The notes beneath the pieces are model-generated. The model was not told the DNA's origin and did not search any database. It saw nothing but the letters and a program-made list of their open reading frames with translations. A stretch of 64,000 nt of DNA from Bdellovibrionales bacterium (GTDB lineage Bacteria > Bdellovibrionota > Bdellovibrionia > Bdellovibrionales > UBA1609). Location of the stretch: NCBI GenBank assembly GCA_965203095.1, contig OZ241877.1, positions 768,001-832,000 on the forward strand. Reading direction: 5' to 3'. Of this stretch, positions 58,495 to 64,000 are shown piece after piece. Numbering within the stretch: position 1 is the first letter of the stretch; each line of letters begins with the position of its first letter. Both the position numbers and the translations under genes were made by a program.

Positions 58495-60441
58495 ATGAAA
58501 TTTACAGAATTTGGAAAATACACCATCATTAAGAAACTGGCCTCTGGGGGCATGGCTGACATTTTGTTGGCCTGTGATTTAAGCCCCGCGGGTTTTGGCC
58601 GATTTGTGGTCATTAAACGAGCTTTGTCAAAGTTTTCTGAAAATGAAGAATTTAAGGACATGTTCAAAAATGAGGGGAAGGTGGCCAATAGCCTCAAACA
58701 CAGCAACATTACCCCCATTTATGAATTTGGGATCCAAAAAGACCAATTTTTTCTCTGTATGGAATATATTTCCGGAAGAAATGTCCGAGAGCTTATTAAA
58801 AAATTACAACTTTACAAAAGCTCTATCAGTATTCCCAACGCGGTTTACATTATTAAAGAGGTGGCCTCTGGTTTGAATTACGCCCACAATGCAGTGGATC
58901 CCAACACGGGACGACCTTTAAACCTTATCCATAGGGACATCAGCCCCCAAAATATCATGTTGAGCTTTGACGGAGAGGTAAAACTTATTGACTTTGGAAT
59001 TGCCAAAATAGCCGACACCAATTTGACTCGAGTAGGCCATCTGAAGGGAAAGTTCAGCTACATGAGTCCAGAGCAGGCCAAGGGCGAACCATTGGACGCT
59101 CGGACAGATATTTTCTGCATGGGGATCATTTTGTGGGAGCTCTTGACTGGCAAAAGGCTTTTTGCTTCGTCAAATGACCTCAACTCTTTAAAAAAAGTTA
59201 AAGTTTGCGATGTTCCTTCAGCACAAAAAATCAATCCGGAGATCCCTACCGCACTCAATCATGTGATTCAAAAGGCTTTAAGCAAAAATAAAAATTCAAG
59301 ATACAAATCGGCCGCAAATATGGAGCAAGATCTGACAGTATTTTTAAATAAAAACTATCCAGAATATTCTCGCTATGAGTTTATTTCCCTAATAAAAAAA
59401 GTTTATCGAAAAGAAATAATGAAAGAGCGGGAAGACTTGAAAACCTATTCCTCTAAATTTAACATATATAAAAATGAACGAAACAAAGAAGAGGGCTTAA
59501 GCCCACAAACACAACACTTGAGTATTCCCGATATATCTATATTAGACCCGGCCCCTAAAGCACCAACAGAAACAAAAAGTTGGTTAAATGAAGAAGAGAA
59601 CAGGTCTTACAACAGCCAGTTTATCACACAAACCAAAAAGACGAAATCATTTACAAACAGTCAAGAAAAAGAGGAGAATAGTTCCACCTTAATCCAAAGG
59701 CAAGACTTCAAAACAGAGACTTCAGCAAATGACCAGACATTGAGTCGCTCATTGACTGATGAGACTCGTCAGCCCCAACTTGTTGCAAAAAATAATGACT
59801 CGATCCAGTTGAAAATGGAAAGCCAATACAAAATGGCTAAAACTCAAAGTCCTCCTTTTAATCAGGGGACTTTAAACACTGATCTGTCTTTTAAAAAAGC
59901 CACAGCTCTTTACGATAAGAAAAAATTTATAGAACAAATTGCAGAAAACAAGGATGAAAACCAAACCTCTTTGTTTTTTTTGATTATGGCGAGTGTTTTA
60001 TTTTTAGGGGGTGGTTCTTTTGCTATTTTTTGGTTGATAAAAAATGACAATGTGATGGAATGGTTAGGGGCAGGAGGCGGAACATCCCCTCCCTCTGTTC
60101 AGCAAGGTTTGCCTAAATCCATTCCGGCCCCGCATTCTGCTGAAAAGGCTTTTGCTAATAAGCAGATAACTAACCCACCGGCTCAGAGAAAAATATTTAT
60201 CAACTCCAAACCCTCAGGTGCGGCCATTTTTGTAAATGGTCAATTTTTGTCTAAATATACCCCTTCTGTAGTCAGTTTGAGTGCCAAAAGCATATCACAT
60301 ATCACTATTAAAAAAGAGGGCTACTTCCCTAAAAAAACTGTATTTAATCCACAAAATCAAAGCCAAAGCTCTTTAAGTGTCAGTTTAAGAGCTGATCCTC
60401 AAAGGGATCTCTCTTCGGAAAAAACCTATATTAGACAATAA
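58495..60441 (+). CDS. Hanks-type Ser/Thr protein kinase with TM and C-terminal PEGA domain
   Basis: GGMA, HRDISPQN, DFG, YMSPEQ; NSKPSGAAIFVNG..TP..KEGY. Confidence 0.95.
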   Translation: MKFTEFGKYTIIKKLASGGMADILLACDLSPAGFGRFVVIKRALSKFSENEEFKDMFKNEGKVANSLKHSNITPIYEFGIQKDQFFLCMEYISGRNVRELIKKLQLYKSSISIPNAVYIIKEVASGLNYAHNAVDPNTGRPLNLIHRDISPQNIMLSFDGEVKLIDFGIAKIADTNLTRVGHLKGKFSYMSPEQAKGEPLDARTDIFCMGIILWELLTGKRLFASSNDLNSLKKVKVCDVPSAQKINPEIPTALNHVIQKALSKNKNSRYKSAANMEQDLTVFLNKNYPEYSRYEFISLIKKVYRKEIMKEREDLKTYSSKFNIYKNERNKEEGLSPQTQHLSIPDISILDPAPKAPTETKSWLNEEENRSYNSQFITQTKKTKSFTNSQEKEENSSTLIQRQDFKTETSANDQTLSRSLTDETRQPQLVAKNNDSIQLKMESQYKMAKTQSPPFNQGTLNTDLSFKKATALYDKKKFIEQIAENKDENQTSLFFLIMASVLFLGGGSFAIFWLIKNDNVMEWLGAGGGTSPPSVQQGLPKSIPAPHSAEKAFANKQITNPPAQRKIFINSKPSGAAIFVNGQFLSKYTPSVVSLSAKSISHITIKKEGYFPKKTVFNPQNQSQSSLSVSLRADPQRDLSSEKTYIRQ

Positions 60442-60767
60442 TGAGGGACATAATGTTTTTTTTGAGAAAAAAGCCCAGCACCTCCTCTCAAAATAAAGGC
60501 TTAAAAAGAGCTTTTTTAAAAAGTCGTTCCGGACAGGTCACAGTGGAGTATATCCTTTTAGGAGCTGTTTTGGCCTTCCTATTTAAATTGGTGACAACTT
60601 CTAACCCGTTAAAAGACTCATTACAAAATTTTCAAGAGACACCTTATAAAGTATTTAATAATTTGTTGGAGACCGGAAACTTAATCTCTGATGGACCAAC
60701 TGGACCAACCGCCACAGAACAGCATCCCAATAATCATAAATTGCATTACACTTCTGATGGAGAATAA
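60441..60767 (+). CDS. Flp/Tad pilin-like protein, translationally coupled to the kinase
   Basis: SG|QVTVEYILL; TAATG overlap. Confidence 0.8.
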   Translation: MRDIMFFLRKKPSTSSQNKGLKRAFLKSRSGQVTVEYILLGAVLAFLFKLVTTSNPLKDSLQNFQETPYKVFNNLLETGNLISDGPTGPTATEQHPNNHKLHYTSDGE

Positions 60768-60776
60768 ATATCGCTT

Positions 60777-62096
60777 ATGAAAAAGTCTACATTTAATAGA
60801 TCGCATAAGCAAAAGTCCAGCTTGTTCGGGACGGCAATACCTTGGACCCTCACCGCTGGCTTTTGCTCATGCGATAAAGGACAGATCTTTTTTACGAAAG
60901 GATTAAGAGTCGCCTATGAAAAGCCTTGTTCTTTAATTTCTTTATCCAAAGGCCCTGCCCTTTCGGGCTCCCGCCAAGTCTTTACCCAAAATCCCGTCAT
61001 TCCCGCCTTGAGCGGGAATCCATTCCTCTCAGACCCTCACCATTCGTTATTCCCGCTTAGCTTTTCGGATTGCCCCCGGCAATTCTCAATCCCACGAAAG
61101 CGGGAATCCATATTTAGTTTATCTTTTTGTCCAAAGTCCGTTCCATTTCGGGACGGGAATACCTTGGACCCTCATGGAACGGACTTTGGACAAAAGCACT
61201 TAAGCAAGCTCTTCCCAGGATTAGTCTTTCCAAAAAAGCCAGTTGCTCCCGTGAAGAACCTTTTCGGCTTGCCCCCGGCAAGTCTCAATCCCGTGAAAAA
61301 CTTCGTCATTCCCGTGAAAACGGGAATCCAGAAATCTCTATCTTTCCTGCAAAATTTATTAAAAAGTCTCAGGTCTTTTCGGATTCCTGCTCAAGGAAGG
61401 AATGACTATTCTTGTCGTGGGAAAATACCTTCCCGGGAAAAAGGTTTTGTGACGATTCCTTTTCTTTTGGTTTCAATTATTATTTTATTTTTGATTCTCT
61501 CTTTTTTTAGGCTCACTTTCACTTTGGTTCATGCCAGTGTGGCTCAGTATATCGCCTATTCCACCTCCCGAAAACTGGCTTTGGGAGGGAAAAATAAGAA
61601 TGGGTTTATTAAGGCAGATGGCCATTATGTCAAACTCCATAAAAAGTTTTTTAATAATGCTTTTAAAGCTAATAGTAGTGATTGTAGTGAGGGAGGGCTT
61701 GATATGTTTACAATCTGCTCTACTAAAGACGGTCTTATTGGAAAAGGAGACTCGATAGGAAAAAAGAGTGAACGTGAGCGTGATTATAAAAGTAATCATC
61801 CTAATAAAACTTTATTTTATGGGGTAGGAGTTCTTTTTGATTATAATAAGGCACTGAGATTTAAAATCCCTTTCTTATCGAAAAACTCAAACATCTCGCC
61901 ACCGGAATATGCCATTATCAATTCTTTTTTAGGACGAGAGATTTCTCAAGATGAGTGTGATGATTATAGTAATAGTTTTTTCAAACAAAGGAATACATTT
62001 ATCTATAGTATGATAAAGGAAAATAGAAATTCACAAATTCTTGATGGCTTTGAAGCTAATAAGATAAAAATAAATGGAGGTGACAATGGCTGTTAA
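60777..62096 (+). CDS. TadE-like pseudopilin with a ~220-aa repeat-derived N-terminal leader
   Basis: EKG|FVTIPFLL..TM..AQYIAYSTSR; lies between two pilin-like genes. Confidence 0.7.
   Translation: MKKSTFNRSHKQKSSLFGTAIPWTLTAGFCSCDKGQIFFTKGLRVAYEKPCSLISLSKGPALSGSRQVFTQNPVIPALSGNPFLSDPHHSLFPLSFSDCPRQFSIPRKRESIFSLSFCPKSVPFRDGNTLDPHGTDFGQKHLSKLFPGLVFPKKPVAPVKNLFGLPPASLNPVKNFVIPVKTGIQKSLSFLQNLLKSLRSFRIPAQGRNDYSCRGKIPSREKGFVTIPFLLVSIIILFLILSFFRLTFTLVHASVAQYIAYSTSRKLALGGKNKNGFIKADGHYVKLHKKFFNNAFKANSSDCSEGGLDMFTICSTKDGLIGKGDSIGKKSERERDYKSNHPNKTLFYGVGVLFDYNKALRFKIPFLSKNSNISPPEYAIINSFLGREISQDECDDYSNSFFKQRNTFIYSMIKENRNSQILDGFEANKIKINGGDNGC
60800..61406 (+). repeat. Cluster of palindromic elements: family B hairpins (60800-60875, 61125-61195), dRS3/CGTC-like copies (60995, 61088, 61304, 61381 inverted) and a 32-bp direct repeat (61062, 61261)
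   Basis: Read directly; matches to 1673, 11926, 12771, 19296, 43190, 49696. Confidence 0.92.
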
Positions 62097-62559
62097 TAAA
62101 AAGAAACGAAAAGCTAAGCAAAAACATTTTTTGCGATCTTCCCGTGGGGTGGCGGTGGTGGAAATGTTGCCACTGTTATTTATTTTTGTCATGTTTTTTG
62201 GCATTACTTTTGGCTTTTGGTCAGCTATTCACAAAGCCACTTTGCACAGCATAGCCGCTCGTCATTACGGCTTTGAAGTGATCCATAATCGCTCCGATTT
62301 GTATTATCATAGAGATACGGATACGGGAAAACCAAATAAAAATTATTATGGAAAACCTAATAAAGGTCTCCGTTATTTTGCTATTGTTGAACATCAAACC
62401 GTCGATCCAGAATTAAAACCAAGAATTAATAAATTAAATTTATTTGACAAAGGAGAACTGACAATAAATTCAATACAAGATCCAACTCTAGAAGTTAATC
62501 CCATTAAGCTTAAAATAGGTTATGGTATCTGTATAGATTATGAATGTGGCGGGTTATGA
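62086..62559 (+). CDS. TadE-like pseudopilin
   Basis: SRG|VAVVEMLPLL..AAR; GGAGGTG RBS. Confidence 0.82.
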   Translation: MAVNKKKRKAKQKHFLRSSRGVAVVEMLPLLFIFVMFFGITFGFWSAIHKATLHSIAARHYGFEVIHNRSDLYYHRDTDTGKPNKNYYGKPNKGLRYFAIVEHQTVDPELKPRINKLNLFDKGELTINSIQDPTLEVNPIKLKIGYGICIDYECGGL

Positions 62560-62665: not shown

Positions 62666-63124
62666 ATGATGACACGAGGCATAATTTATAAAACCTATAA
62701 AAAAGTGGAACAACTGCATAAAAAACACTTAAAAAGACATGGAGTAAATCTCCCAAAATTGAAAAATAACAAAGGATCATACACCAGAGATGCGTTGGTA
62801 TTAATATACCTAAGTCAAGGCTATCCTCATACTAAAAAAGCAACAAAAAAGGAATTAACCCAATTTATAAGAAAATATTATCCTGACACAAGTGATGTTC
62901 AACAAGGAAGGCATTTAGGAGCACAAAAAGGATGGTGGATTTTAGCAGGAGGAAGAGACAATATTGTCTTATCCTTAAAACGAGGAGAATATCAGCTTTA
63001 CACATTAGAAAAACCCTACCCTGGGTTTAAGCAAAGCAGGAGACAAATAAAATCCCTTAAAAGGCAAGCCCCCTGGCCAACTGAGATAGAAAATGAAAAA
63101 ATACATAAACAAAATTATTCATGA
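62666..63124 (+). CDS. Putative restriction-endonuclease-related protein, apparently C-terminally truncated
   Basis: Overlaps the MTase start; AT-rich; no nuclease motif visible. Confidence 0.45.
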   Translation: MMTRGIIYKTYKKVEQLHKKHLKRHGVNLPKLKNNKGSYTRDALVLIYLSQGYPHTKKATKKELTQFIRKYYPDTSDVQQGRHLGAQKGWWILAGGRDNIVLSLKRGEYQLYTLEKPYPGFKQSRRQIKSLKRQAPWPTEIENEKIHKQNYS

Positions 63125-64000
63125 TGATGCTCTTAATTTTTTGCCAAAATTAAAAAGCAATTCCATAGATATTATACTGACAGATCCTCCCTATTTCTTA
63201 GATAAAATGGATCATACTTGGAGTGCTAAAAAGGTAATCAGCCCTAAAAAACCTTATGCTATAAAACACCTGCCAGCAGGTATGAAGTTTGACAGAGAGC
63301 AAGGAAAAACCTTTTATTCATGGTATTTAAAAGTATCAGAAAATCTTTTTAGGGTTTTAAAACCAGGAGGATTTTTCTTTTCTTTTTCCAGCCCCAGATT
63401 GTATCACAGGATGACTTGTGCTATTGATGATGCAGGATTTGAAATAAGAGACTGTTTTATATGGCTTTATACACAAAATCAGCCCAAAGCAATGAGCCTT
63501 CATCATTTTATTAACAAAACAAATAAACCTGAAGAAGAAAAACAGAAACTCAATAGCAAATTTAAGGAATGGAAAACTCCACAGGTAAAATCCTGTTATG
63601 AACCGATTGCAATGGCTCAAAAACCTATAGAGGGAACTTATTTAGAAAACTCAATAAAATACAATGTTTCTTTAATCAATACAAAAATAAAGCAAGGGCA
63701 GAATAAAGATATGTTTGCATCAAATATCATGACAAGTGAATACATTAACCACAAAATAGATAAGGTTTTTTTAGTAGATAAACCAAAAGAAAATGAAAAA
63801 GGCTCTTTTAATAATCATAAAACAGTAAAACCCTTATCATTATTTAGATACTTAATTAGTCTAACTACAAAACCTAAAAGTATAGTATTGGATCCATTTA
63901 TAGGTAGTGGCACAACAGCTATAGCTTGTAGGGAGCTTAACAGGAAATTTATAGGAGTGGAAATCAATAAACAATATATTGATATTTCCACTACAAGATT
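63093..64000 (+). CDS. Beta-class N4/N6 site-specific DNA methyltransferase (runs off window end)
   Basis: Manual translation: MKKYINKII..TDPPY..RVLKPGG..HKTVKP..VLDPFIGSGTT. Confidence 0.92.
   Translation, partial: MKKYINKIIHDDALNFLPKLKSNSIDIILTDPPYFLDKMDHTWSAKKVISPKKPYAIKHLPAGMKFDREQGKTFYSWYLKVSENLFRVLKPGGFFFSFSSPRLYHRMTCAIDDAGFEIRDCFIWLYTQNQPKAMSLHHFINKTNKPEEEKQKLNSKFKEWKTPQVKSCYEPIAMAQKPIEGTYLENSIKYNVSLINTKIKQGQNKDMFASNIMTSEYINHKIDKVFLVDKPKENEKGSFNNHKTVKPLSLFRYLISLTTKPKSIVLDPFIGSGTTAIACRELNRKFIGVEINKQYIDISTTR

Follow-up and report, generated by a model that had tools for sequence, protein, structure and literature searches.

A minor-pilin-like gene of a Bdellovibrionales bacterium with a long predicted leader built from palindromic and MITE-type repeats

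Can repetitive DNA replace the start codon and the cleavable leader of a pilin gene while the gene stays in use? The question arises in a 1.80-Mb Bdellovibrionales genome (two contigs, 38.3% G+C, 90% complete), within a window of 64,000 nucleotides, by which we mean the whole stretch of DNA analyzed. The gene for a Ser/Thr kinase-PEGA membrane protein (58495..60441, + strand; Pfam Pkinase E 8e-39, PEGA E 1e-4) is followed by a run of three pilin-like genes, and the focal gene is the middle one. The small pilin-like gene upstream (60441..60767, +; RSG/QVTVE, the slash marking the cut) is found in 10/10 genus genomes and is read in the same frame as the focal leader. The pilin-like gene downstream (62074..62559, +; SRG/VAVVE) has a short leader. 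The focal ORF comprises 439 codons from ATG 60777, which lies 9 nt (10 nt in the initial annotation) past the in-frame TAA of the upstream gene (60765-60767). As the initial annotation stated, the frame stays open for about 220 codons: from 60777 to 61445 (669 nt), 0 stops occur over 222 codons up to the Gly codon at 61443-61445, and the other five frames contain 10, 8, 13, 5, and 11. Directly after the pilin run, at 62666-64000, a 152-aa ORF without a family match overlaps an ORF that we take to be DNA methyltransferase-like from its DPPY motif; the two look like an inserted restriction-modification (R-M) pair.

Short-read contigs are identical to the window over 60300-60807, 60998-61330, and 61308-62200, and these matching runs may be the source sample itself. 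Positions 60868-60979 are without short-read cover at 99% likeness, and the sequence there rests on the assembly. An assembly slip near 61440, which would put an ATG at 61402 in frame, is ruled out because contigs from two samples equal 61310-61524 exactly. The four sequencing runs that contain the locus come from two samples of a single study, with no RNA run among those listed. Scans of metagenomes and genomes revealed no second strain at the focal locus, and a promoter and terminator scan gave nothing on the + strand inside the leader.

Of the 669 leader bases, 559 match repeats elsewhere in the genome. Where at least six palindromes of two families had been counted initially, we find three kinds of hairpin, about eight modules in total, and a truncated MITE end. 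Family B combines stems of variable sequence length with a loop fixed at 28 nt and occurs in 81 copies (up to 4 mismatches) in this genome and in 0/40 relatives searched; among the genomes compared, it is species-specific. Short terminal inverted repeats flank most copies, along with 6-bp target duplications of the TANNTA type, features by which we class the family as a MITE. The paired ends are 107-178 nt apart and enclose no coding capacity, and copies are many. Family B is mostly intergenic, with 5/81 cores in ORFs of at least 150 codons, two of these five in the focal leader. Family A is a dRS3/NTS-type (CGTC) palindrome with 62 copies, compared to 3 in the shuffled genome. The dRS3/NTS core has been defined as ATTCCC-N8-GGGAAT (PMC11893778), and the genome contains 27 perfect cores of this form. 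Family C is a hairpin with 10 copies. Searches for two transposase families gave no NF033578 (IS5) or PF01797 (Y1) match in this 90% complete genome, and Rfam yielded weak hairpin matches only, none close to the gathering score.

The leader opens with a complete family B MITE (60771..60908, +) comprising a hairpin (60800-60875), the fixed 28-nt loop (60825-60852), and the right end. Its target site TAAATA (60765-60770) includes the TAA of the upstream gene, and its degenerate left terminal repeat supplies ATG 60777. The right target-site copy is an in-frame TTA at 60903, which is TAA in 4/9 aligned copies. It is followed by a truncated second MITE (60909..60969, +; direct repeat D7), composed of a left terminal repeat and half a B stem with 86% match to another copy, and by a family A palindrome of the dRS3/NTS type (60988..61025, +). 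A family C hairpin is then fused to a degenerate A palindrome (61045..61112, +; direct repeats D1 and D5), and this module matches a copy in a lipoprotein leader (C1:1396785-1396849) at 88%. The second family B hairpin (61113..61207, +), with a 22-bp perfect stem (61125-61195) and its loop at 61147-61174, is read in another frame than the first. A second C hairpin and an A palindrome with the usual tail (61305-61330) make up 61258..61375 (+), a module that contains TTG 61269, GTG 61293, and GTG 61314. Family A palindromes with GTC flank and CCA tail thus occupy 60996-61022 and 61305-61331. The last module is an inverted A palindrome (61376..61408, -; inverted repeat I1), which is predicted to base-pair with 60996-61021 and carries the out-of-frame ATG 61402. 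With a purine run just upstream, this element-derived ATG starts a frame of 16 codons that spans the cleavage site (61402-61452); ribosomes slipping by -1 at G AAA AAG would pass into the pilin frame, and there is no sign of use.

Might a run of this length be open by chance? The leader DNA is not AT-rich, as had been supposed at first, since its G+C content of 45.9% is above that of the genome (38.3% for the contig). The further claim that so long an open run is improbable holds up, with nulls of 0.0002-0.01 that have to be read in light of the locus having been picked for being extreme; because of this choice, a chance origin is unlikely rather than impossible. Intergenic element clusters of the genome have 0.037 stops per codon. 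Random 669-nt mosaics of these clusters were open in the set frame in 40/200,000 cases (2e-4), and a stricter null, which keeps module order and orientation and randomizes phase, gives an open-frame chance of 0.0098. Among intergenic clusters of at least 300 nt, 1/72 frames is open, and 122 off-frame upstream walks reached 87 codons at most. Every repeat module is read in a frame that is naturally open for it. From the sister copies, 2.25 stops would be expected in the leader frame vs 8.3 and 6.2 in the other two, and the stops seen are 0 in the leader frame and 8 and 7 in the others. The difference between 2.25 expected stops and 0 is a weak signal of stop avoidance within the leader.

ATG 60777 is the only in-frame ATG ahead of the cleavage site, in agreement with the initial annotation. 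At the corresponding position of 39 MITE left ends, GTG is found in 22 and ATG in 5; on this comparison of copies, the start is not ancestral and belongs to the MITE terminal repeat. Other in-frame candidates are GTG 61251, 61293, and 61314, TTG 60822, 61008, 61164, and 61269, and CTG 61347. Between the last element and the Gly codon there is no ATG, GTG, or TTG, hence the leader is repeat-derived under any start. The reference for scoring start features was a set of 213 orthologue-confirmed starts. On this scale, ATG 60777 has a Shine-Dalgarno (SD) energy of -6.4 (top quartile) and open local folding (70th percentile). A GGAG at 60759-60762, within the 3' end of the upstream pilin-like gene, ends 14 nt upstream of this ATG; the usual SD spacing is 5-10 nt, and the excess counts against ATG 60777. 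TTG 61269 and GTG 61314 rank below the 1st percentile for local folding and are buried in hairpins, and GTG 61251 and GTG 61293 are without a usable SD match. A GTG or TTG start near 61290-61320, considered at the outset as a challenge to the long leader, does have codons at its disposal (GTG 61293 and 61314), one lacking an SD and the other buried in a hairpin, so that an internal GTG start is disfavored.

The predicted class III cleavage site (REKG/FVTIPF) has its Gly-1 at 61443..61445 (+), and 90% or more of the 32 homologues aligned share this Gly. The leader contains 33 K/R, 10 D/E, and 23 Pro and no hydrophobic segment. As it is basic and has no membrane segment, it would remain cytoplasmic, which is the side on which the hydrophilic basic leader of class III signal peptides is located (PMC10191384). 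Instead of Glu5, the focal pilin has Pro at +5, and distant homologues have Asp. A S. sanguinis pilin with Pro4 and without Glu5 is cleaved (PMC6497953). The mature pilin-like domain (61446..62096, +; 216 aa, ending GDNGC) has a predicted N-terminal helix over residues 3-47, with pLDDT of about 90 over residues 1-40. It keeps 20/24 family-conserved columns, as does the paralogue in the same genome, and comparison with this paralogue yields dN 0.38 and dS 1.22 (dN/dS about 0.3); by these substitution rates, the mature domain is constrained. For this domain, Pfam gave nothing significant, NCBIfam and PDB gave no match, and structure searches returned no clear fold match (FimA Z 2.9). Since Glu5 and a family or fold match are missing, only the motif, the helix, and the context speak for a pilin. 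The genome encodes two A24 prepilin peptidases. In B. bacteriovorus, PilD processes the Tad pilin (10.64898/2026.07.08.737194), so the predicted cleaving enzyme need not be TadV. SRP54-family proteins (Ffh/FtsY) were found in none of 3/3 genus genomes searched (G000, G002, G007; controls 14/14 positive), and it is speculation that their absence relaxes leader length.

Homologues have short leaders, as the initial annotation had anticipated. At 29 orthologue loci, the distance from a start codon to the Gly is generally no more than about 30 codons. Leaders of most homologues are about 4-30 aa long, the 223 aa of the focal leader being about ten times the typical length, and the focal protein is the only one of 107 homologues that exceeds 298 aa. 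Some homologues have open runs of 72-112 codons upstream that are due to overlap with the previous gene. Three long homologues (P0010, P0030, P0103) were dropped as parallels because each has a Met closer to the Gly and the extension looks like the upstream pilin in another frame. The paralogue within the same genome (C1:1411575) is 53% identical and has a short leader; it could substitute for the focal pilin. It lies behind a large prepilin-like gene, within C1:1411575-1414734, and its 5' end recurs as two broken copies (C1:970891-970998 and 973973-974080) within a cassette-like region where secreted genes are duplicated.

Repeats also occupy other prepilin leaders. Four fibre-type prepilin paralogues (C1:191317, 472811, 980950, 1223242) hold A elements in their leaders ahead of a poly-C tract, and three of the four also hold B fragments. 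Their ATG-to-poly-C distances (190, 163, 271, and 139 nt) share one phase and are all stop-free. The poly-C tracts measure 22, 18, 14, and 17, two in frame and two out, and the one paralogue scanned for domains has a Peptidase_S74 domain. Indels among the three alignable fibre leaders are multiples of 3 in 7/7 cases vs 8/87 between MITE copies, pairs that are not independent, and the fourth leader aligns poorly with mixed gap lengths. The sister genome G007 has a minor pilin with a 102-aa leader that contains a 69-bp x3.3 array, and two of its fibre genes have a roughly 140-nt in-frame leader insert carrying a dispersed repeat. The array (L175:873-1103) makes up most of its leader and is found in a single place in G007. 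Leaders are mostly short or phase-variable in a set of 40 regions taken from G007, G008, and G009 for their prepilin motifs; 7 of these regions yielded no motif under the search pattern. G009 prepilin leaders (L150, L155-L159, L163-L167) contain Leu-Ser runs of varying length, likely dinucleotide tracts, and others poly-C or poly-G.

Elements are not confined to leaders. Alignment to G002 reveals in-frame inserts of up to about 75 aa in AlaRS, RseP, CinA, and two R-M proteins. Elements at these places would be translated with their host protein, a point in favor of a translated leader. The idea of the leader as a safe harbor for palindromic elements therefore needs qualification: leaders are the roomiest harbor and not the sole one. 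ResB and a phosphopantetheinyl transferase have short element-built N-termini in which no cleavable leader is seen. Among 30 ORFs with an element ahead of the conserved part, a start codon follows the element in 21 and is lacking in 9, three of which have no homologue and look like element-only frames. A DnaJ-domain gene (C1:1484 kb) was rejected as a second forced case, since a TTG preceded by an SD is available to it downstream of the element. Two of three long element-built N-termini belong to prepilins (about 0.001, of little weight because the length cut was set post hoc). In a lipoprotein gene (C1:1396197-1396955, L192), a GTG in a MITE end begins about 100 open codons that run across C and A elements to the lipobox, and its orthologues in 3/9 genus genomes have short signal peptides. 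A secreted protein (C1:737515-738093, L193) takes its ATG and first residues from a MITE end. The Cas12a (Cpf1) gene (C1:753844-758079, L188) has an in-frame family A palindrome near residue 130-144, and the 1441-codon ORF after it (C1:758096-762421, L189), without a Pfam match, contains in-frame elements.

Taken together, we consider it probable that the focal pilin is made from ATG 60777 as a 439-aa precursor whose 223-aa leader is cut at Gly223, as predicted from the motif. Translation might instead start inside the last elements (GTG 61251, 61293, or 61314, TTG 61269, or CTG 61347), giving a leader of 32-64 aa and leaving the upstream repeats as untranslated mRNA. In-frame alternative codons are available for this, the L192 lipoprotein (C1:1396.7 kb) has an ATG at the A-element position equivalent to GTG 61314 that would yield a signal peptide of normal length (30 aa), and REPs at the 5' ends of ORFs are often extragenic, which calls for caution (PMC3733652). 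Such a start is nevertheless unlikely, as it leaves 158-179 open codons to luck (about 0.001-0.003 at 0.037 stops per codon) and has to use codons that lack an SD or lie within stable hairpins.

The insertions might also have silenced the gene, with the short-leader paralogue at C1:1411575 doing the job and the open frame being luck. This lineage-specific paralogue is present, the mature frame remains open in 23-55% of simulations at 3-8% neutral divergence, and the focal branch is longer than that of the paralogue (0.55 vs 0.35). The focal copy is, however, a member of a conserved three-pilin run and keeps conserved columns as the paralogue does (20/24; 35/41), and the reading requires a coincidence of 0.0002-0.01; we regard it as improbable. 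We give slightly less credence yet to a translated leader recruited as a control, whose hairpins would gate or slow translation and set the pilin dose, or whose 24.6-kDa peptide would have a role of its own. The predicted fold of the whole leader mRNA is strong (z -6.1), but palindromes alone produce strong folding. Genus prepilin leaders carry frame-switching poly-C and dinucleotide tracts, whereas the focal leader has no slippery tract; homologues lack the leader, and the 40 relatives lack family B. A broader proposal seems to us doubtful: that mobile elements took over the start entirely in a conserved pilus gene, whose basic 24.6-kDa leader peptide, derived from non-coding DNA, is produced and clipped; that prepilin leaders in this lineage, for which no SRP54-family gene was recovered, are a nursery for new protein and switches in the form of MITE mosaics, tandem arrays, and poly-C tracts; and that the focal leader already tunes minor-pilin supply.

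The preferred reading is a 223-aa leader translated from ATG 60777. A MITE sits at the site TAAATA, which overlaps the upstream stop, and repeats have replaced the short native leader that homologues retain, its start codon included. We propose that ribosomes leaving the upstream pilin restart 9 nt downstream at ATG 60777 and that later indels survived only where the frame was kept. Prepilin peptidase would clip the leader at Gly223, and a leader that stays in the cytoplasm might cost little whatever its length. The leader would then be tolerated passenger DNA, with selection acting on the frame and not on the peptide sequence. The initial annotation had likewise proposed that insertions are tolerated as long as the frame is kept. 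The nulls and the 3n indels in paralogue leaders support this, with the amendment that the repeats replaced the leader, start included, rather than expanding it. Its giant disposable leader is similarly favored by the nulls, the start features, and long leaders in the sister species, while translation and cleavage are predictions.

Should the long leader indeed be made, both prepilin peptidase and membrane insertion would cope with a leader that equals the pilin in size, which would raise the upper limit of the range. Selfish DNA could thereby replace a start codon and signal leader with the gene surviving. For annotation, the case advises against routine trimming of long, repeat-rich N-termini on pilins; gene finders that look for the pilin motif close to the N-terminus will overlook genes of this kind.

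How does the locus compare with known systems? In the largely open-access literature searched, we found no publication on repeat-built prepilin leaders. In class III signal peptides, a hydrophilic basic leader ending in Gly likewise precedes a long hydrophobic helix, and leader length is known to vary (PMC10191384, PMC6497953). The focal leader has 223 aa compared to 8-18 aa in S. sanguinis (PMC6497953), and unlike usual class III pilins, the focal protein lacks Glu5 and its mature domain matches no family model. Family B shares terminal inverted repeats, an inner hairpin, and the absence of an encoded transposase with bacterial MITEs such as Correia/NEMIS and RUP, and likewise resembles them in its 110-180-bp size and 6-bp target duplication (PMC10969869). 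It differs from the MITEs described in the passages of that work considered here by a fixed 28-nt loop on variable stems, by being species-specific, and by an end that donates a start codon. Neisseria dRS3/NTS elements have the same ATTCCC-N8-GGGAAT core, CGTC/GTC flank, and CCA tail as family A, and form intergenic arrays, in contrast to the few copies within a reading frame here (PMC11893778).

The closest parallel is provided by the Rickettsia RPEs and intragenic CGTC/GTAG REPs, which are likewise in-frame palindromes in coding genes, and family A has the CGTC-1/RPE-6 form (PMC3733652, PMC10969869). RPE-1 at N-termini has been reported as expressed, and the passages of both sources considered here do not link RPEs to prepilin leaders (PMC3733652, PMC10969869). 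In-frame insertion relative to orthologues, by which RPEs are recognized, is seen in AlaRS, RseP, CinA, and the two R-M proteins relative to G002 and in the focal gene relative to the 29 loci. The largest Rickettsia-type REP clusters reported encode 43-82 aa (PMC3733652), whereas about 200 aa derive from three families here. Unlike the Rickettsia RPEs as presented in these passages, the elements here supply the start codon and would replace the whole cleavable leader. Our verdict by analogy is that the focal leader would be an extreme variant of the Rickettsia-type intragenic palindromes, new in its size, its three-family mosaic, its element-donated start, and the concentration of elements in leaders that are cut off.
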